64,000 nucleotides of DNA from a virus: the IMG/VR virus record IMGVR_UViG_3300047550_006186. The stretch is one strand, 5' to 3'. The translations under genes and the position numbers were made by a program. The notes under the pieces are model-generated. The model was not told where the DNA came from. It ran no database searches and saw only the letters and a program-made list of their open reading frames with translations. Every line of letters begins with the position of its first letter. The first letter of the stretch is position 1. Shown piece by piece: positions 8,126 through 51,451 of the stretch.

Positions 8126-9925
8126 ATGATTGAACTGAATGACCCCACTGTAATTGCACATACTGACTCACAAGCATTGAACGTTTTGTTGGCAAAAATC
8201 CAAAGACCCATTCCTGATGAATCCAAATATTTGGAACGACTGGAGCAAGAGCTCAAAATAATAGATGAACAAAACTTCAGTCCACATTTTTTGAGAGTGT
8301 TGGAAGTTTTGGACCTTACCAAAGACATACCACACATCACTAGAGGCAGTGCAGGCAGTTCACTTGTTTGTTATCTACTAGGCATAACAGATGTTGATCC
8401 AGTCAAATATGACATTCCATTGGCTAGATTTTTGAACCCCCTGCGTGATGATTTGCCCGACATTGACATAGATTTTGGTCAAAAATTTCACAAAGAAGTA
8501 TTGGAACGTATCTATCGCCACTGGCCAGGTAGAGCTGCCCGCCTCAGCAACTACGTGAAATATCGTGAAAAAAGTGCCCAAAAAGAAGCATTGAAGAGAG
8601 TGTGTGGCATCAAGGGCAAAGCTGCCAACCAACACAAGCCAGAACACCTAGTGCCCAAACACAAACACAAGGAATGGAAAAATTTATCAGAAAGGTTGTT
8701 GGGCAAAAAGAAATGTATCAGCAAGCATCCTGGCGGTGTGATTGTTTTTGACCAACCGCCTGCCAAAAGTTTGTTGTTACAAAAAGACACCCAAATCTTG
8801 CTGGACAAATATGAGTGTGAAGATCTTGCGCATTTGAAAATCGACGTGCTCAGCAACAGAGGATTGAGTGTGCTGTGGGATTGTAGTGGTCAAGGTCCGT
8901 TTGAATACAACCATGAATGCGATCAGACCCTTGCCATGCTGGCAGCAGGCAACAGTTTTGGGATCATCCAAGGAGAATCTCCCGTGATGCGGCGAACACT
9001 TCGCGCTCTCAAACCTCAAACGGTGGATGATCTCACACTTGCCACAGCATTGATTCGTCCTGCTGCCTTGACTGGTAGACAAAAGGGTGTGTTTTTTAGA
9101 GAATGGATTGGACACAATAAACAGCCTGGTGCCCTCAAACACAAGGATGGATTGGTATTTGATGAAGATGCAATTGATTTGATCTGCAAGGTATTGGATG
9201 TGGATGAGTTTGAGGCTGACATGTATCGCCGCGGATTCGTCAAGAAAAATGAAGAGATGATGTTTCAATTTTTGGAGAAGATTGGCAACCATCCACGTAG
9301 AGAAGAGATAATGTATCTGCTCAAAAACATGGATGGTTTTGGACTATGCAAAGCCCACAGTGTGAATCTGGGTAGGTTGGTATATGCTCAAGCTTGGGAA
9401 AAACAGCACAATCCTCAAAAGTTTTGGTTGGCTGCTCTACAAAACGCATGCAGCATGTATAGACCCTGGGTGCATATTGAACACGCAAAATCAGCTGGCT
9501 GGCAAATACAGGGCAAGAAACGACCCTGGCTGGTCAAAAACAACATATTATACAATGAAAATTGGCAAGTTCCTTTGTTTGACAGCCATTGGGATCAATT
9601 GGCACACATGGGATTTTGGACACACAAGTCTTGGATACCAGGCACCTATTATCAACAAATGGGCACCACAGCAGCATTTTGTGGAATAATTGCTGCACAC
9701 AGAATTTATCATTGTGGCCAAGGAGAGTTTGTTACTTTTGCCACATTGGGCACAGGTGCTGGTGAATTTTTGGAAGTTGTTTTGCCAGGTATGATCAATG
9801 TCAAAAATACAGCTTTTGTGGAAGGCATGGGAGAAGTGGAAGTCAAAAACAACAACACTGTTATATATACTAGAACATTTGAAACATTGTCCACAAGAGA
9901 ACATGCTAAGCACCACGACAAGTGA
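8126..9925 (+). CDS. dnaE: Minimal DnaE-like (C-family) DNA polymerase catalytic core, lacking PHP and C-terminal accessory domains
   Basis: Matches Pol III alpha palm/fingers motifs: RGSAGSSLVCYLLGITDVDP (DnaE [20 protein letters not shown]), ARFLNPLRDDLPDIDIDF (ERFLNPERVSMPDFDVDF), KHPGGVIV, LKIDVLSNRGLSVL, DGFGLCKAHSVNLG; only 599 aa. Confidence 0.7.
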   Translation: MIELNDPTVIAHTDSQALNVLLAKIQRPIPDESKYLERLEQELKIIDEQNFSPHFLRVLEVLDLTKDIPHITRGSAGSSLVCYLLGITDVDPVKYDIPLARFLNPLRDDLPDIDIDFGQKFHKEVLERIYRHWPGRAARLSNYVKYREKSAQKEALKRVCGIKGKAANQHKPEHLVPKHKHKEWKNLSERLLGKKKCISKHPGGVIVFDQPPAKSLLLQKDTQILLDKYECEDLAHLKIDVLSNRGLSVLWDCSGQGPFEYNHECDQTLAMLAAGNSFGIIQGESPVMRRTLRALKPQTVDDLTLATALIRPAALTGRQKGVFFREWIGHNKQPGALKHKDGLVFDEDAIDLICKVLDVDEFEADMYRRGFVKKNEEMMFQFLEKIGNHPRREEIMYLLKNMDGFGLCKAHSVNLGRLVYAQAWEKQHNPQKFWLAALQNACSMYRPWVHIEHAKSAGWQIQGKKRPWLVKNNILYNENWQVPLFDSHWDQLAHMGFWTHKSWIPGTYYQQMGTTAAFCGIIAAHRIYHCGQGEFVTFATLGTGAGEFLEVVLPGMINVKNTAFVEGMGEVEVKNNNTVIYTRTFETLSTREHAKHHDK

Positions 9926-31201: not shown

Positions 31202-31644
31202 GTATTACATATTTTCATTCATTTCGCAAGTGTTTGTATGCAATTATTAAAAACCAATAAAAGATACATATGATTACCTATTTGGCTGATTCCTTGAATT
31301 CAAGGAAATCAATTTAGACTACTTGATTCAGTTATAAATCATTGGGGTAGACGAAATCAATTCTGGCGAGTGGGCTTGGCCCAGCAACGGATAGAACATG
31401 CATGCGAAGAAAACGGCGTCCGGTTAACTCGCGTACATGCAGCATACACATCGCAAACTTGCAGTGCATGCGGGGTCAAACACAAGCAATCGCGCCAAGG
31501 CGAACGATTCTCGTGTTTGAGTTGTGGATATGAAGTAGATGCCGACTTGAATGGCGCTATCAATATCCGCAACAGAGGAGCATATAGTCCCTCTGTTAAA
31601 AAAATATAAGATCATTTATAGAAATATATGATCTCAATAACTAT
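31202..31644 (+). mobile_element. Internally deleted copy of IS200/IS605-family element B
   Basis: LE (gtattacatattttcattcatttcgcaag...) and RE (...aacagagggactatatgctcctctgtt...ctcaataactat) identical to element at 48641-50029 in inverse orientation; retains only last 79 codons of tnpB. Confidence 0.6.
31370..31609 (+). pseudogene. tnpB: TnpB C-terminal fragment (79 aa)
   Basis: 77/79 identical to C-terminus of ORF 48676..49794. Confidence 0.6.
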
Positions 31645-38286: not shown

Positions 38287-38400
38287 TTTGCCCAGGTGGT
38301 GAAATTGATAACCACCCTGCTTGCGTCTGTAGGCCCACTAGTAGAGTCAGTGGTTTGAGGGGCCATCCAGTGGAGGTTCAAATCCTCTCGGATGCACCAA

Positions 38401-39710: not shown

Positions 39711-40996
39711 TGTGAACTACCACGCCCTAAAGGGCTGTGGCTTCCTGCTTCATCGTAGTGGCTGATATCTCACCCCAATGGGTGAGAATATCTGCCATCA
39801 CATCCACAGGCGCTTGGGGCAGTTCCTGCCCTGCATGATCTATTGTCCATTGTTGATGTCCCCAGTTGCGAATATTGATGGCTGCATTCGTGTCTCTGTG
39901 CTGTGTTGTGCCGCAGGCGTCGCAATGGTATTCTCGCTGAGCGAGGTCCATGTGACTTTTGCGGGTGCCACATGCACTACAGGTCTTGCTGCTGGGTAGC
40001 CACTGATTGATCTTGACAAGATGATGACCTTGCCTTTGGCACTTGTAGGCCAATGCACCAATCAACATAGCCCAATCCGCATCTGCTATGGCCTTGGCTG
40101 TGGCCTTGCTCTTGCGTCTCATCTCATCAATTTTCAGTGTTTCAACACACACCAGGTCATGTGATTTGGCTATTCTCGCACTTGTCTGATGTATATGGTT
40201 AGTTCTTTGGCAGCGAACCAGATCATGGGTTCGGGCCAGTTTTTGTTTTGCTTTTGTTCTATTCCTACTTGCTTTTTGTTTTCTGGATAGCTTGCGTTGT
40301 AACTGTTTGATACGTGCTTGTTTCTTCCCCAATGGCTTGGGATTTGCAACTAGCTCACCAGTTGATAGTGCTGTGAATTTGCTGTTGACATCCACACCCA
40401 CTGGGTTGGTTATGTTTTGAACCAATGGCAATTCAGTCACATCAACCACAAATGAGGCATACCAACCACCTGGTGTTTGAATCACAGTCACACCCTTAAA
40501 CTTGGGAAGATCTCGATGGAGTACAATCTTGATATCACCAATCTTGGGTAGATATAGCTTGTTGTTGTCAACTCTCACGTTTTGTTGATATCTAAAACTT
40601 ATAGGAGTTGTGTATTTGCTTTTGAACCGTGGGAATCCAGCACCTGTCTTTTTCATATTTTTCAGTGCTGTATCCAAGTCACTTATGCTCTGTTGTAGTA
40701 CTTGACTGTAGGTATCTGATAACCATTTGTTGTGTTTCTTCAATTCAGTCAGTTGTTTGCACATATCAAACTGCCAAACAAACTTTTTAGTATTGGCATA
40801 TTCATCAATGTTGATCTTGAGGAAATGATTGTATAGATATCGCACTGCTCCGCCCACAGAACGCATGTGTTGTTCCTGTTGTGGGGTTGGATAAATTCTA
40901 TAGCGATATCGCTGTTTCATAAATCAATTGATATAATCTATTCAAAAAGCCGCTATCCATCCAGGGCCTAAAGGCGCCTGGCTTTCCGCGGCGGGA
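39711..40996 (-). mobile_element. IS200/IS605-family element A, copy 1 (tnpB only, no tnpA)
   Basis: RE gtgaactaccacgccctaaagggctgtggcttcctgcttcatcgtagtggctgatatctcacc; LE ...ccgctatccatccagggcctaaaggcgcctggctttccgcggcggg; near-identical to copies at 50165 and 63009. Confidence 0.75.
39727..40920 (-). CDS. tnpB: TnpB (IS605 OrfB family, RuvC-like + Zn finger)
   Basis: 397 aa; MKQRYRYRIYPT N-terminus, C-terminal CSACG...CDACG zinc finger; 3 near-identical copies. Confidence 0.85.
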   Translation of the reverse strand: MKQRYRYRIYPTPQQEQHMRSVGGAVRYLYNHFLKINIDEYANTKKFVWQFDMCKQLTELKKHNKWLSDTYSQVLQQSISDLDTALKNMKKTGAGFPRFKSKYTTPISFRYQQNVRVDNNKLYLPKIGDIKIVLHRDLPKFKGVTVIQTPGGWYASFVVDVTELPLVQNITNPVGVDVNSKFTALSTGELVANPKPLGKKQARIKQLQRKLSRKQKASRNRTKAKQKLARTHDLVRCQRTNHIHQTSARIAKSHDLVCVETLKIDEMRRKSKATAKAIADADWAMLIGALAYKCQRQGHHLVKINQWLPSSKTCSACGTRKSHMDLAQREYHCDACGTTQHRDTNAAINIRNWGHQQWTIDHAGQELPQAPVDVMADILTHWGEISATTMKQEATAL

Positions 40997-45709: not shown

Positions 45710-45786
45710 GCCCGTGTAGCCCAACCGGCAGAGGCGAAGGTCTCAAAAACCTTCAAGTGTCAGTTCGAATCTGACCACGGGTACCA
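45710..45786 (+). tRNA. tRNA, anticodon CAA (Leu by anticodon) with atypical short variable loop; CCA encoded
   Basis: Acceptor gcccgtg/cacgggt, D-loop with GG, anticodon loop ctCAAaa, T-arm gtcag-ttcgaat-ctgac, discriminator A + CCA. Confidence 0.55.
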
Positions 45787-45817: not shown

Positions 45818-45893
45818 GGGGGTGTGGTGTAATTGGTTAGCACGAAAGATTTTGAATCTTTTAGTTCTCGTTCAAGTCGAGGCACCCCTTCCA
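45818..45893 (+). tRNA. tRNA-Gln (UUG); CCA encoded
   Basis: Acceptor gggggtg/cacccct, D-stem gtgt/gcac, anticodon stem aaaga/tcttt with loop ttTTGaa, T-arm tctcg-ttcaagt-cgagg. Confidence 0.65.
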
Positions 45894-46420
45894 ATTTCCT
45901 TTCGTGTCACACTGCGCATTTGCACAGAACAGGGATGACTGCAAAATTTTTGACTTTTGTATTTCGCTACAAATAGGTTTTTACAATAATCACATGGCTT
46001 TTTGCGATCCATAATCTTGGATAATTTTCTGTTGAGTTCTGTCCTATATTGAATTCCGCATGGATTACAACAAAATTTTTGTGTCTTGTATCCGGGTGTG
46101 TAGAGTTTGTGACACTGCAAGCATTCTTTTTGATGACCTTTTATGTCATATAAATCTCGAAGATCCTTTACCTTGTAACAGGTTTTCACATATTTGATAT
46201 ACCCTTGTATCATTACTTTGTCTATAACAAAGACATGAGGATTTTGATCAATCTTTGCTTGGGCTCGTTGACTCATGAATCCTTTGATCTCTATTTCAAT
46301 ATTCTGAACTACAAAATCAGGTTTGTAGTTATGAACTTTATTTTTGTAGGTATACGTATATACCGACTGGCATCTTTCAATCGTGATATTATGATCCAAA
46401 TGCCAGATTAGGAATGCCAA
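45872..46420 (-). CDS. PD-(D/E)xK-like nuclease with C-terminal Zn-ribbons (homing-endonuclease-like)
   Basis: YKPDFVV...IEIEIKG (PD...ExK) and four CxxC pairs; lies in tRNA block. Confidence 0.4.
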   Translation of the reverse strand: MAFLIWHLDHNITIERCQSVYTYTYKNKVHNYKPDFVVQNIEIEIKGFMSQRAQAKIDQNPHVFVIDKVMIQGYIKYVKTCYKVKDLRDLYDIKGHQKECLQCHKLYTPGYKTQKFCCNPCGIQYRTELNRKLSKIMDRKKPCDYCKNLFVAKYKSQKFCSHPCSVQMRSVTRKEIGRGAST

Positions 46421-46543
46421 TTCATATGTGCTGTCACAATTTATCCCTTTGTAACTCCCTTTGTGGCCACCTCCATGCTTATCCTGTTTGAGTGCATTAC
46501 GAGATGCATTGATAGCAAAACAAGTTCTTGAACAAGTAACTCT

Positions 46544-47771: not shown

Positions 47772-47868
47772 TGGTTGCGACTCCTGTTATATATTGGTGG
47801 TGGGACAGCCTGGAGAACTCCGTGCCGGGTTTTTTGAAGTTCCTACCTTCAAAATTACCACAAGTATT

Positions 47869-47897
47869 TATGCTTGACTTTGAAGCAAGATTACGAT
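47869..47897 (+). promoter_or_regulatory. Sigma70-like promoter TTGACT-N17-TATAGT upstream of tRNA-Leu
   Basis: cttgactttgaagcaagattacgatatagt. Confidence 0.4.
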
Positions 47898-47943
47898 ATA
47901 GTATAAACGTTGCAGAAGAGGATCCGCCACCCCTTCCAAAATT

Positions 47944-48085
47944 GCCCCTGTGTCGGAATAGGTAGACGACGCGGACTTCGGAGAAAAGGGTACCAAGCCC
48001 TGATATGGTGCGAATCCAGAATCTCCGCTCTAAAATCCGCTGATCTTAACAGGTCGTGCCCGTTCGAGTCGGGCCAGGGGCACCA
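47944..48085 (+). tRNA. tRNA-Leu(UAA)-like gene interrupted by a 53-nt insertion between anticodon positions 34 and 35; CCA encoded
   Basis: Exon-like halves GCCCCTGTGTCGGAATAGGTAGACGACGCGGACTT | AAAATCCGCTGATCTTAACAGGTCGTGCCCGTTCGAGTCGGGCCAGGGGCACCA match class-II tRNA-Leu(UAA); insertion 47979-48031. Confidence 0.5.
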
Positions 48086-48114
48086 AACCCTCCAAGATCG
48101 AGGCACCACACAAA

Positions 48115-48372
48115 ATGGCACGTTCAACAGACAAAACAGCAATTGTAATGAGAAGCCTACATCTTTTTGAAGAGGATGACAGACACATACGGGGGCTGGC
48201 AGCCAACCTGGGTTACAGTAAAGGTGATCTATACAGAGGTATTATCAACCAAGCATTAGAGGGCCTTGAGCAATTTTCCCCAGAAGATCAGGTGAGAATT
48301 TTGATCAGTTGGTATAATCGGGGAGTTTTGTCTCAGCCCAATCAAGGTTTAACACATTTTTGGATAGATTAG
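48115..48372 (+). CDS. Hypothetical small protein (85 aa)
   Basis: ORF track; between tRNA genes. Confidence 0.4.
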   Translation: MARSTDKTAIVMRSLHLFEEDDRHIRGLAANLGYSKGDLYRGIINQALEGLEQFSPEDQVRILISWYNRGVLSQPNQGLTHFWID

Positions 48373-48640: not shown

Positions 48641-50029
48641 ATAGTTATTGAGATCATATATTTCTATAACTGATCTTATATTTTTTTAACAGAGGGACTA
48701 TATGCTCCTCTGTTGCGGATATTGATAGCGCCATTCAAGTGGGCATCTACTTCATATCCACAACTCAAACACGAGAATCTTTCGCCTTGGCGTGATTGCT
48801 TGTGTTTGACCCCGCATGCACTGCAAGTTTGCGATGTGTATGCTGCATGTACGCGAGTTAACCGGACGCCGTTCTCTTCGCATGCATGTTCTATCCTTTG
48901 CTGGGCCAAGCCCACTCGCCAGAATTGATTTCGTCTACCCCATTTGTTACCTTGCTTGATTTCACTCAAATCTTCCATGACCAAATGGCTGAGTTGATCC
49001 CAAGGTATATCGTTTTTGATGGAGTAGTTTATTTGGTTTTTGAGTTCAGTTCTTGCCCTTGCATGAGATTTGCTGCGTTGCTTGCGACGGGCAATAACTT
49101 CCAATATGTCTTTAATTGGTCTACCAGTTGTATGGGTAGTTTCTATGTTGCCGTTGGAACAAGTGACCAACTTGTTTCTGCCCATGTCCACACCCATGAT
49201 GGCCTGGTTGCATCGCAAGGCTACATCTTTCACAAAATAAATTCCTAGACTACCATCTGAATTAACACGCAAACAATTGGTTTTCATGACAAAACCACGT
49301 CGCATTAGGTCTTGCATGTGACGTGTGGGTGTGAATGGGATGAAATAACTACCACGAGGAAATGATGTGATCTTGATCCAGTGACTGGCAATCTTGCTTG
49401 TTTTGTTGGGTTGTATGTCAATAAATCTTGAATCTAGCTCAATGTTCACTGAGTTAATGTCAATGGACAAGCTTTTGTTGTTCCATTTGTCTAATATTTC
49501 TTGTTGGTATTTTTGTAGGTTGCTGGCTTTTTGAGCCAATTTAACTTTCTCTTGAATTGATCTGACCACTGCACTGGCTTGTTTGGCACACACCTGGCTC
49601 AACCGAGATGGCAATTGTATCTGATCAGTAACGTCTTTGTTCGCAAATTTGGTTATTTTATCTTGATATAACTGGTGATCAACTAGTTTTTGTAGTTCTT
49701 GTCTATAGATATCAAACGGCTGCATCAACATCAAGTGTTTGATGTGATTGGCTAGTTTGGGTCTGTAGGTTGATATCCTAGTAATCTTTGGCATTTGTTG
49801 TATTATTTATGTTTTATCATCAATCAATTGATGATTATTAGTAATGTCACACATATGATAATATATTTTAATTTAAGGCCCATTTAATGGTTTATAACTG
49901 AATCAAGTAGTCTAAATTGATTTCCCTGAATTCAAGGAGTCAGCCAAATAGGTAATCATATGTGTAATTTATTGGTTTTTAATAATTGCATACAAACACT
50001 TGCGAAATGAATGAAAATATGTAATACTT
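48641..50029 (-). mobile_element. IS200/IS605-family element B (tnpB only), full copy
   Basis: Ends defined by comparison with deleted copy at 31202-31644. Confidence 0.7.
48676..49794 (-). CDS. tnpB: TnpB (IS605 OrfB family), second subfamily
   Basis: 372 aa; C-terminal TSQTCSACG...CLSCG zinc finger + RuvC-like motifs. Confidence 0.8.
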   Translation of the reverse strand: MPKITRISTYRPKLANHIKHLMLMQPFDIYRQELQKLVDHQLYQDKITKFANKDVTDQIQLPSRLSQVCAKQASAVVRSIQEKVKLAQKASNLQKYQQEILDKWNNKSLSIDINSVNIELDSRFIDIQPNKTSKIASHWIKITSFPRGSYFIPFTPTRHMQDLMRRGFVMKTNCLRVNSDGSLGIYFVKDVALRCNQAIMGVDMGRNKLVTCSNGNIETTHTTGRPIKDILEVIARRKQRSKSHARARTELKNQINYSIKNDIPWDQLSHLVMEDLSEIKQGNKWGRRNQFWRVGLAQQRIEHACEENGVRLTRVHAAYTSQTCSACGVKHKQSRQGERFSCLSCGYEVDAHLNGAINIRNRGAYSPSVKKI

Positions 50030-50164: not shown

Positions 50165-51451
50165 TAGTGAACTACCACGCCCTAAAGGGCTGTGGCTTCC
50201 TGCTTCATCGTGCTGGCTGATATCTCACCCCAATTGGCGAGAATATCTGCCATCACATCCACAGGCGCTTGGGGCAGTTCCTGCCCTGCATGATCTATTG
50301 TCCATTGTTGATGTCCCCAGTTGCGGATGTTCACTGCTGCATTCGTGTCCCTGTGCTGAGTGGTTCCGCAATGATCACAATGATATTCTCTTTGCTTGAG
50401 ATCCATGTGACTTTTGCGTGCACCACATGAGGAGCAGGTCTTGCTACTGGGTAGCCACTGATTGATCTTGACAAGATGATGGCCTTGCCTTTGACATTTG
50501 TAGGCCAATGCACCAATCAACATAGCCCAGCCAGCATCAGCTATACACTTGGCTGCGGGCTTGCTTTTTCTTTTCATCTCATCAATTTTCAGTGTTTCAA
50601 CACACACCAGGTCATGTGATTTGGCTATTCTCGCACTTGTCTGATGTATATGGTCGAGTCTTTGGCAGCGAACCAGATCATAGGTTCTTGCCAGTCGTGT
50701 TTTTGCTTTCAGTCTATTCCTACTTGCTTTTTGTTTTCTGGATAGCTTGCGTTGTAACTGTTTGATACGTGCTTGTTTCTTCACCAATGGCTTGGGATTT
50801 GCAACTAGCTCACCAGTTGATAGTGCTGTGAATTTGCTGTTGACATCCACCCCTACCGGGTTGGTTATGTTTTGAACCAATGGCAGTTCCAAGACATCAA
50901 CCACAAATGAGGCATACCAACCACGTGGTGTTTGAATCACAGTCACACCCTTGAATGTGGGTAGATCTCGATGGAGCACAATCTTGATATCACCAATCTT
51001 GGGTAGATATAGCTTGTTGTTGTCAACTCGAACATTTTGTTGATATCTAAAGCTAACAGGAGTTGTGTATTTGCTTTTGAATTTGGGGAATCCAGCACCT
51101 GTTTTCTTGATATTTTTCAGTGCTGTATCCAAGTCACTTATGCTTTGTTGTAGCACTTGACTGTAGGTATCTGATAACCACGGGTTGTGTTTCTTCAATT
51201 CAGTCAGTTGTTTGCACATGTCAAACTGCCAAACAAATTTTTTGTTCAATTGATATTCATCAATGTTTACACGTAGGAAATGGTTGTATAGATATCGCAC
51301 TGCTCCGCCCACAGAACGCATCTGTTGTTCTTGAGCAGGGGTTGGATAAATCCTATAGCGATATCGCTGTTTCATAAATCTATTTATATAATCTATTCAA
51401 ACAGCCGCTATCCATCCAGGGCCTAAAGGCGCCTGGCTTTCCGCGGCGGGA
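50165..51451 (-). mobile_element. IS200/IS605-family element A, copy 2
   Basis: Same RE/LE as copy at 39711-40996. Confidence 0.75.
50182..51375 (-). CDS. tnpB: TnpB (element A copy 2)
   Basis: About 93% identical to ORF 39727..40920. Confidence 0.85.
   Translation of the reverse strand: MKQRYRYRIYPTPAQEQQMRSVGGAVRYLYNHFLRVNIDEYQLNKKFVWQFDMCKQLTELKKHNPWLSDTYSQVLQQSISDLDTALKNIKKTGAGFPKFKSKYTTPVSFRYQQNVRVDNNKLYLPKIGDIKIVLHRDLPTFKGVTVIQTPRGWYASFVVDVLELPLVQNITNPVGVDVNSKFTALSTGELVANPKPLVKKQARIKQLQRKLSRKQKASRNRLKAKTRLARTYDLVRCQRLDHIHQTSARIAKSHDLVCVETLKIDEMKRKSKPAAKCIADAGWAMLIGALAYKCQRQGHHLVKINQWLPSSKTCSSCGARKSHMDLKQREYHCDHCGTTQHRDTNAAVNIRNWGHQQWTIDHAGQELPQAPVDVMADILANWGEISASTMKQEATAL

Follow-up and report, generated by a model that had tools for sequence, protein, structure and literature searches.

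The window analysed here is a 64,000-nucleotide (nt) stretch of the virus record IMGVR_UViG_3300047550_006186, which comes from an uncultured cyanophage, and our subject is the tRNA-Leu(UAA) gene on its plus strand at 47944-48085 (coordinates are those of the window, position 1 being its first letter), whose two halves are parted by 53 nt within the anticodon. Names such as L127 or L199 denote contigs and loci retrieved in the present analysis. The gene, its promoter-like site and the parts of the insert are as follows:

47874..47902, plus strand: sigma-70-like promoter TTGACT-17 nt-TATAGT, with 10 of 12 consensus matches; a consensus match alone, function not implied.
47944..47978, plus strand: 5' exon of tRNA-Leu(UAA), comprising the acceptor 5' strand, the D arm, the anticodon-stem 5' strand and C32 U33 U34.
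47979..48031, plus strand: putative intron of family 1, a tRNA acceptor/T-arm minihelix mimic (covariance model R1, 25.8 bits, E = 8.5e-4).
47979..47985, plus strand: acceptor-like stem, 5' strand CGGAGAA, beginning exactly at the 5' splice site; six of seven positions pair with 48021-48027.
47987..48001, plus strand: hairpin H1, AGGGT-ACCAA-GCCCT, a variable module (its change in L198 is given below).
48004..48020, plus strand: T-arm mimic with stem TATGG/CCAGA and the 7-nt loop TGCGAAT (48009-48015); four of five pairs, one A.G mismatch.
48021..48027, plus strand: acceptor-like stem, 3' strand ATCTCCG, adjoining the T-arm mimic without a gap.
48028..48031, plus strand: single-stranded 3' tail CTCT, 4 nt, ending at the 3' splice site and equivalent to tRNA positions 73-76.
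48032..48085, plus strand: 3' exon of tRNA-Leu(UAA), comprising A35-A38, the anticodon-stem 3' strand, the variable arm, the T arm, the acceptor 3' strand, A73 and CCA.

An earlier note on this DNA had described an intact class-II tRNA-Leu(UAA) with an encoded CCA, split by 53 nt between U34 and A35, and the sequence of 47944-48085 reads accordingly. The 5' exon is GCCCCTG-TG-TCG-GAATAGGTAGA-CGA-C-GCGGA-CTT, with a D stem of 3 base pairs (bp) around the loop GAATAGGTAGA, and the 3' exon is AAAA-TCCGC followed by the long variable arm TGATCTTAACAGGTCG, the T arm GCCCG-TTCGAGT-CGGGC and CAGGGGC-A-CCA; the promoter-like site sits 42 nt 5' of the gene. The window sequence alone would also allow a junction at 33/34, T being the last base of the 5' exon as well as of the insert, but family members with a tail ending in A fix the placement at 34/35. 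When the 53 nt were cut out between CUU and AAAA, ARAGORN called a tRNA-Leu(taa) of 89 nt with the loop CUUAAAA (89 nt including CCA, not the 87 nt given before), and the spliced sequence was 95% identical to uninterrupted phage tRNA-Leu(UAA) genes over 40 nt spanning the junction; on both counts the exon halves make a class-II tRNA-Leu(UAA) once the insert is removed. In its default mode, which allows no intron, ARAGORN made no call at the locus, and the Rfam tRNA model left the unspliced window gene unscored (47800-48250, E ≤ 10); the same model scored the homologous interrupted gene in L133 at 42.8 bits. The intron mode of ARAGORN returned an 89-nt class-II tRNA with a 53-nt intron at 37/38, called as Arg(UCG), an implausible assignment that was rejected on the long variable arm and class-II body, A73, the GGTAGA D-loop and the family evidence presented below.

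The insert reads CGGAGAAAAGGGTACCAAGCCCTGATATGGTGCGAATCCAGAATCTCCGCTCT. In its minihelix, 10 of the 12 layers are standard pairs, the G-C pair that closes the T-arm mimic (48008/48016) is the equivalent of G53-C61, and the splice sites, which were set independently from the exons, coincide with position +1 of the mimic and with the end of its position 76. Because the geometry is shared by inserts of unrelated sequence families, the T-arm positions are invariant and the intron model matches real tRNA ends, we read the insert as mimicking the acceptor/T-arm half of a tRNA and ending in a 3' tail of 4 nt. The closing stem CGGAGA/TCTCCG and the two small hairpins AGGGTACCAAGCCCT and TGGTGCGAATCCA that had been drawn for it earlier are all present in the sequence, but the minimum free energy (MFE) fold is without the two hairpins: at -15.1 kcal/mol, compared with -12.7 kcal/mol for the comparative structure, it pairs the interior differently. 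Hairpin H1 changes from GGGU/GCCC in the window to GAGU/GCUC in L198, and is missing or different in other families.

Three origins had been suggested for these 53 nt: the remnant of a group I intron, an insertion that inactivates the gene, and a new kind of small intron dependent on factors in trans. The last of these fits best; the relic is not supported and inactivation is unlikely. The relic, a degenerate form of the cyanobacterial-type group I intron, has the place in its favour: the group I intron of cyanobacterial and plastid tRNA-Leu(UAA) lies in the same gene, at the same U34/A35 site and in the same world of cyanobacteria and their phages, and the scan described below found longer inserts at this site in other viral contigs (L014, L061, L088), of which L014 matched Rfam Intron_gpI weakly and below threshold (16.1 bits where the gathering score is 50; E = 0.14). 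Group I introns, however, are self-splicing, measure about 200-300 nt and have a P1-P9 core, a 5' U.G and a terminal G, and the window insert is without these. It is indeed too short for such an intron, as had been stated, with no P3-P9 core (RF00028); an Infernal-type Rfam check, as the earlier note had advised, gave no match, Intron_gpI included, over the locus at the gathering score (whole window) or at E ≤ 10 (47800-48250); U34 has no G partner in the folds, leaving no U.G at the 5' site; and the window tail is CTCT, with family tails ending in U or A rather than G. The fold that is conserved and covaries is a tRNA minihelix unrelated to P1-P9, and the same build occurs in tRNA-Pro and tRNA-Lys. 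We regard the relic as effectively refuted.

Other known classes were considered and rejected. Archaeal and eukaryal tRNA introns (EndA/TSEN with RtcB or Trl1) are likewise short and placed in the anticodon loop, and removal by a protein enzyme with an RNA ligase is theirs; they lie canonically at 37/38 and depend on two 3-nt bulges 4 bp apart or on a tRNA-body ruler, whereas the window pre-tRNA forms no bulge-helix-bulge motif in folds at 34/35 or 37/38, CUUC/CUCU and GGAC/CGCU remaining unpaired and the 4-bp helices failing. To our knowledge, EndA is not known in bacteria. A repeat, a miniature inverted-repeat transposable element or an IS200/IS605-derived element was considered for the sake of the three TnpB genes in the window; within the window, however, the insert occurs only once, with neither a target duplication beside it nor a further copy at ≤3 mismatches or by model R1.

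We scanned for similar genes with a pattern of exon bases only (D-loop, GAYTT, a gap of 28-58 nt, AAAATC, T-loop), which demands the flanking CUU and AAAA, so that their presence in the scanned tRNA-Leu genes carries no weight. The scan gave 25 loci in IMG/VR, and the same pattern was found in 96 metagenome stretches and 27 genome stretches. About 35 unique "inserts", nearly all of the genome matches among them, proved to be artefacts in which a 5' tRNA-Leu fragment is followed by a full tRNA-Leu, and the true inserts among the genome stretches are confined to a few short contigs of metagenome-assembled genomes (MAGs; L260, L262, L264), which are probably phage DNA. After removal of the artefacts, about 60 distinct inserts of 29-53 nt remained, each interrupting a class-II tRNA-Leu(UAA) gene that is intact in all other respects and belongs to an uncultured phage. 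The comparison with tRNA-Leu genes of related phages, which the earlier note had proposed, yielded both uninterrupted matches and about 60 interrupted genes. An interrupted cloverleaf that is perfect on both sides of the insert, with the same interruption in about 60 independent genes, is far beyond chance. No copy of the window intron, of family 1 or of family 2 was found by blastn among cultured and deposited phages, and neither an exact-word search of IMG/VR with an intron 21-mer nor a search with the neighbouring 273-aa protein gave a match.

The artefacts form a pattern of their own. At the genome loci L244-L259, L261 and L266-L270, a 5' tRNA-Leu(UAA) fragment ending GACTTAAAA lies 30-40 nt before a complete tRNA-Leu(UAA), in many bacterial MAGs (Bdellovibrionota, Alphaproteobacteria, Mongoliibacter), and this looks like a duplicated attachment (att) site, left behind by elements that inserted themselves into the anticodon loop. 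The apparent introns of 58-119 nt that ARAGORN gave for other isotypes in the first loci were likewise discarded, as chimeras of adjacent tRNAs.

Clear homologues of the window insert, which together we call family 1, occur in L127 (where the insert reads CGGAGAAAGGGTAAACGCCCACTATGGTTCAAATCCAGAATCTCCGCCGT), L136, L138, L159, L175, L220, L181, L198 and L182. The exons around family-1 inserts diverge strongly, with the acceptor GCGCTCT against GCCCCTG in the window and the anticodon stem AGAGA against GCGGA, and across the family the intron sequence is more conserved than the exons. In L199, the 5' exon is 100% and the 3' exon 89% identical to that of the window and a neighbouring gene is shared, and these near-window exons hold a diverged 51-nt intron of the same build; we count this pair as support, reading it as apparent intron turnover in like exons.

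For the test of geometry, 27 distinct inserts of 47-61 nt, including that of the window, were parsed from both ends without alignment; they belong to at least four unrelated sequence families and to three isotypes (Leu, Pro, Lys/Thr). All share one parse, consisting of 7 nt, a variable middle, a 5-7-5 hairpin, 7 nt and a 4-nt tail, in which the outer 7-mers pair. With the tail set at 4 nt, 91.5% of the acceptor-like cells were paired, compared with 22-51% at other tail lengths from 0 to 8 and 35-40% at other 5' offsets. In the fixed-column alignment A2, 90.7% of cells were paired against a mean of 57% for shuffles (0 of 500 reaching the observed value), and only 31-47% were paired when the 3' partner was slid along the alignment. 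Compensatory changes were present in 11 of 12 pairs, and every one of the 27 inserts closes its loop with a G-C pair and has C as the third loop base (the equivalents of G53-C61 and C56). T-loops of the family-1 type follow the pattern U[U/G]C[A/G]A.., the window version being TGCGAAT. The tails differ between groups: family 1 has CNNN (CTCT in the window), the Pro and Lys/Thr genes have ACAA, and NCCA is found both in family 2 and in L134. A covariance model made from introns only also matched the T-arm/acceptor/CCA ends of genuine tRNAs. The G.U pairs in the covariation point to a strand-specific structure at the RNA level, and the comparison as a whole indicates that the insert is under RNA-level structural selection. 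The window insert also has what RNase P looks for in a minihelix substrate, with 7 + 5 layers, a 7-nt loop bearing the equivalents of U54, C56 and A58, a 4-nt tail and U at -1.

The other isotypes were found without the exon pattern. ARAGORN placed similar inserts in tRNA-Pro(UGG) (L142, L172) and tRNA-Lys(UUU)/Thr (L172) on the same contigs, and clean removal of the insert restores a canonical 7-nt loop in the window, Pro and Lys/Thr genes. These cases bear on the idea that the window RNA functions unspliced, as a chargeable, non-decoding tRNA-Leu chimera that is a decoy for tRNA-targeting defences or a leucine donor. In its favour, leucyl-tRNA synthetase (LeuRS) recognises its tRNA without reading the anticodon, the window gene keeps the LeuRS identity elements (A73, D-loop, class-II body), and anticodon nucleases commonly strike at the anticodon loop. 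Against it, the synthetases for Pro and Lys/Thr do depend on the anticodon, although tRNAs of these isotypes carry similar minihelix inserts, and the canonical loop left on removal suggests that removal takes place; we consider such a chimera highly improbable. The genes concerned, tRNA-Pro(UGG) at L142:1976-2110(-) and L172:8759-8893(-) and the gene at L172:2378-2514(-), carry minihelix introns of 59-61 nt with ACAA tails, and both contigs also hold a family-2 intron in tRNA-Leu; the last gene was called Thr(UGU) by ARAGORN, and placing the junction by the minihelix rule makes it Lys(UUU). Further candidate inserts of 38-75 nt in the anticodon region were reported by ARAGORN at L158:2197-2314(-), L165:4576-4690(-), L183:177-326(-), L130:9493-9805(-) and L223:4036-4306(-), in Cys/Ala-, Gly-, Thr-, Ser- and Asn-like tRNAs.

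Family 2 (e.g. L133:7418-7467, L128, L142, L262) differs in its loop, an invariant GGCAGCA instead of a canonical T-loop, and has a conserved middle CCAGUG; UGC could pair with GCA of the loop to form a pseudoknot. Its contigs also carry CUA-anticodon tRNAs and may come from amber-recoding phages. Outside predicted tRNAs, model R1 matched L113:5655-5713(-) (GTGGG-GGCAGTA-CCCAC, then CGCCTCC-ACCA; E = 0.28), either a free-standing copy or a chance match. The conservation of unpaired nucleotides within families (the T-loop and junction purines in family 1, CCAGUG and GGCAGCA in family 2), together with a size like that of small ribozymes, would suit a new class of small ribozyme that cleaves or splices itself. 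Against this, no known ribozyme (hammerhead, hairpin, twister, pistol, hatchet, HDV-like) matched in Rfam at E ≤ 10, a hammerhead reading (CUGAUA ... GAA, three-way junction) was dropped when the CUGAUA box turned out not to be conserved in homologues, and the families have only helical geometry in common, with no catalytic core; we know of no precedent for two precise cuts and a ligation by 50 nt of RNA. We think a new ribozyme very unlikely.

A further set of inserts at the same tRNA-Leu site, which we term class B to set it apart from the minihelix inserts (class A), measures 29-39 nt and consists of plain hairpins of 8-13 bp with 3-5 unpaired nt on each side, the flanks often being CUA...CUA or UUACA...GAU (e.g. 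L129:6634-6718, L157, L158, L124, L132, L162, L178).

Short introns in phage tRNAs have been seen before. The tRNAs of Lak megaphages carry "enigmatic", highly conserved introns for which no Rfam hit was obtained and no mechanism was proposed, nor any rule of geometry or context of nucleases and ligase described (Devoto et al. 2019, Nat Microbiol, PMC6784885; preprint 10.1101/356790); they measure 79-114 nt and interrupt Tyr, Phe, Thr and Gly tRNAs, in or close to the interval 36/37-37/38 (PMC6784885, Table S6), and one of them was noted to "encode a possible tRNA" (PMC6784885). When we parsed the introns of Table S6, each had at its 3' end a canonical 5-7-5 T-arm (TTCGAAT) abutting a 7-nt strand, which is matched by a perfect complement at intron position 28 in the introns from Tyr, Phe and Gly tRNAs, the tail being 2-4 nt; the 27-nt module 5' of this tRNA mimic is a hairpin followed by the spacer AAAUUAAA. 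The window insert resembles the Lak introns in being short and non-group-I, in lying in the anticodon loop of a phage tRNA and in having a tRNA-like acceptor/T-arm near its 3' end. It differs in that the mimic spans the whole intron, a minimal form, at 34/35 of tRNA-Leu and in a cyanophage. The kinship between the two lies in the structural parse (7/middle/5-7-5/7/4 against 5' module/7/middle/5-7-5/7/2-4); in these terms the window intron appears to be a minimal variant of a phenomenon seen before and left unexplained. Our literature search on short phage tRNA introns found nothing beyond the Lak megaphage papers.

The open reading frames (ORFs) of the intron-bearing loci were clustered and representatives were scanned against Pfam. 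Free-standing HNH, GIY-YIG/SegE-like and PD-(D/E)XK-like nucleases often adjoin the interrupted tRNA (e.g. L133:7533+), as does the HNH ORF at L127:4139-4762, 80 nt downstream of it. A nuclease ORF within 300 nt of the tRNA accompanies 12 of 60 distinct introns and 0 of 73 intronless tRNA-Leu genes, a comparison biased by query families taken from intron-bearing loci. The window has one such ORF:

45872..46474, minus strand: PD-(D/E)XK-type nuclease-like ORF with the motif YKPDF...EIEIKG; tblastn E = 6e-17 to cluster 15 (L133:7533+), with PHROG endonuclease matches.

It lies 1.5 kb from the tRNA-Leu gene, an in-frame stop parts it from an upstream Zn-finger-like segment, and its homologues adjoin intron-bearing tRNA-Leu genes elsewhere. 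Phages of the L127 group, which bear a family-1 intron and have several genes in common with the window phage, encode a T4 Rnl1-family ligase less than 7 kb away (L127:10888-12066; PF09511, 2e-25; tRNA-specific C-domain PF20819) and, within the same 7 kb, a PNKP phosphatase (PF25109) and an AAA_33 kinase.

From the anatomy of the gene, the family of inserts, the covarying minihelix geometry and the neighbouring genes, all of them observed, we infer splicing, its enzymes and homing: with a rough probability of 0.4, the 53 nt would be a genuine enzyme-excised intron in a functional tRNA-Leu(UAA), cut out by RNase P and tRNA-end processing, sealed by a ligase and spread in connection with homing endonucleases. 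RNase P is the obvious candidate for the 5' cut because acceptor/T-arm minihelices with a 3' tail are its classical substrates and bacterial RNase P favours U(-1); it would cut between U34 (47978) and C47979, with U at -1. An RNase Z/BN-type 3'-end endonuclease, or another enzyme, would then cut after 48031. T. maritima RNase Z and E. coli RNase BN are able to cut after CCA, RNase P and RNase Z/BN both leave 3'-OH/5'-P ends, the substrate of Rnl1, and T4 Rnl1 seals nicks in anticodon loops. What is left would be a nicked anticodon loop whose 3'-OH/5'-P nick an Rnl1-type ligase could seal; should the ends be cyclic phosphate and 5'-OH instead, Pnkp with Rnl1, or host RtcB, would be required. 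The spliced junction would read ...GCGGACUU joined to AAAAUCCGC... (in RNA, ...GGACUU/AAAAUCC...). A variant with the canonical RNase Z cut, in which the 3 nt past the discriminator stay in the mature loop, was rejected, as it gives non-canonical loops in most family members. In using a tailed mimic as a signal for cutting in cis, the scheme is akin to the tRNA-like elements processed by RNase P and RNase Z (minihelix substrates, MALAT1 mascRNA, mitochondrial tRNA punctuation); those elements free flanks that are never rejoined, whereas the flanks here are the halves of a tRNA anticodon loop and need ligation.

A number of observations weigh against this scheme. Family-1 tails (CUCU) are not CCA, and the canonical RNase Z cut falls after N73 and not after N76. 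The 27-nt module before the mimic means that RNase P cannot set the 5' splice site of the Lak introns. Class-B inserts do not fit the minihelix rule or RNase P geometry; were one mechanism to serve every class, it would need to take its bearings from the tRNA body. In the window itself the comparative fold lies 2.4 kcal/mol above the MFE and the acceptor/T junction has the non-Watson-Crick layers A.A and A.G, and in L199 the acceptor-like stem is only 4-5 bp. The enrichment of nucleases is biased, its query families having been defined at the intron-bearing loci themselves, and a search for Rnl1, Pnkp and RtcB, made in the 64-kb window with Pfam (about 50 ORFs) and tblastn and extended to the 10 kb beyond its start (L271), found none of them.

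The main rival is a dedicated protein endonuclease of the phage or host, either anticodon-nuclease-like or measuring the tRNA body, which would cut both sides at 34/35 and leave cyclic-phosphate/5'-OH ends for Pnkp and Rnl1 or for RtcB; the tRNA-like fold would then have some other use, such as letting the insert fold on its own, making it stable or giving the excised RNA a function. That inserts of different shape share the site (class-B hairpins, the flankless insert of L126, class-A minihelices) suggests that the exons define the sites; the Lak introns have a 5' module before their mimic; the relatives encode a kinase and phosphatase (Pnkp) besides Rnl1, needed only for cyclic-phosphate/5'-OH ends; and 34/35 is the cut site of known anticodon nucleases such as colicin E5 and RloC. 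Such an enzyme would leave unexplained why the stem start and the 4-nt tail fall exactly at the splice sites in 27 class-A inserts, no candidate was identified near the tRNA except nucleases of the DNA-type homing kind, and Pnkp with Rnl1 may only counter host anticodon nucleases, as in T4. We therefore hold a dedicated endonuclease to be possible and rather unlikely. The T4 restriction-repair system (PrrC cutting, Pnkp healing, Rnl1 sealing) is a close parallel, with a break in the anticodon loop and sealing by an Rnl1-family ligase with the tRNA-specific C-domain, and homologues of Rnl1 and of both Pnkp domains lie near the family-1 intron in the L127 group; the T4 break, however, is a host attack at 33/34 of tRNA-Lys and not the removal of an intron, and the repair genes were not found in the window. 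Given the class-B inserts, either several mechanisms exist or an enzyme reading the tRNA body sets the sites.

In the RNase P scheme the insert would also act at the DNA level, where it breaks the conserved anticodon-loop sequence and would probably persist and spread together with the flanking free-standing homing endonucleases (collaborative homing). Phage group I introns typically come with homing endonucleases, and a free-standing endonuclease beside an interrupted conserved gene recalls F-CphI by the psbA group I intron of cyanophage S-PM2 and T4 SegB in its tRNA cluster; there, too, the intron disrupts the target, but it is a self-splicing group I ribozyme, and for the nucleases neighbouring the present inserts such a target specificity is presumed. 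The same neighbours, flanking many copies, would suit an unspliced selfish or protective DNA insertion that spoils the homing-endonuclease target in a dispensable phage tRNA gene and leaves the gene dead: a phage can often do without its tRNA genes, the window yielded no splicing enzymes, and the L199 insert looks partly degraded. But about 60 distinct genes keep perfect exon cloverleaves, a DNA spacer would have no need of strong RNA-level covariation or of conserved T-loop bases, family-1 introns are more conserved than their exons, and the window gene has a promoter-like site of its own. We judge a dead gene of this kind improbable; the inactivating insertion named in the earlier note is similarly unlikely in view of those cloverleaves and the covarying structure of the insert. 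Returning to enzymatic excision, we would propose tentatively that the inserts form a distinct class in bacterial viruses, tRNA-mimic mini-introns with RNase P acting at the 5' side, an RNase Z/BN-type enzyme at the 3' side, rejoining by an Rnl1-type ligase or RtcB, and collaboration with homing endonucleases on the conserved anticodon-loop DNA.

The remainder of the window carries genes for rIIA, rIIB, NAMPT, an NMNAT/Nudix protein, sigma-70, heme oxygenase, a ferredoxin-dependent bilin reductase and a fatty-acid desaturase, together with four other tRNA genes and three TnpB genes. Identical pieces of it were found in the JGI metagenome 3300042987 and in Logan SRR35181308, and blastn found no similar deposited phage. 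One of the other tRNAs (45710-45786) has a class-I shape with no long variable arm, the anticodon CAA and A73, and was called Leu by ARAGORN; another (38323-38399) is weak (Rfam, 34.7 bits), with the anticodon GAG and an aberrant D arm. The TnpB genes (IS605 OrfB/Cas12f-like) lie within 12 kb at 39727-40920(-), 48676-49794(-) and 50182-51375(-), and a 242-bp segment by one of them (48641-48882) is repeated in inverted orientation at 31403-31644 with 97.9% identity, probably as a transposon end or omega-RNA region. A PP-loop ATPase (TilS-like, PF01171) is encoded at 57716-58420(+), and a homologue (L124:1595-2188(-)) lies 600 nt from the interrupted tRNA-Leu in L124 and L189. An 843-aa ORF at 58961-61492(+) combines major vault protein shoulder and repeat domains with SPFH/Band 7, which is unusual in a phage, and the DNA polymerase III alpha ORF at 8126-9925(+) has only 599 aa, with NTPase and finger domains, and may be a split or fragmented dnaE. 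On the same phage contig, 10 kb past the window start, L271:10949-17240 holds an unusual set of auxiliary genes, comprising a CHASE2-guanylate cyclase, a PA14 protein, FecR, CsgG, CsgF, dUTPase, ClpS and HSP20.

In the current view, introns in the tRNA genes of bacteria and their viruses are all of the self-splicing kind (group I/II), and short enzyme-dependent tRNA introns are regarded as an archaeal and eukaryotic feature. Of the short conserved introns in phage tRNAs, the window offers the most compact and cleanest case. What is new here is the strict geometry rule, the support from covariation, the classical group I site of a cyanophage tRNA-Leu and the context of nucleases and ligase. The comparative set yields a testable rule, that the intron is an acceptor/T-arm minihelix whose ends are the splice sites, as well as candidate enzymes (RNase P; Rnl1 with Pnkp) and a plausible rationale as a selfish element through homing endonucleases. 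The 50-nt module could be a portable RNA insert removable by enzymes. Interrupted genes of this kind are missed by standard bacterial tRNA finders, which biases phage tRNA repertoires and the codon-usage and recoding inferences drawn from them. If the proposed excision is true, it would be the first tRNA splicing in the bacterial world to depend on a protein or a ribonucleoprotein, would give bacterial RNA biology a new splicing pathway and RNase P a new use, and would explain the introns of Lak phages.

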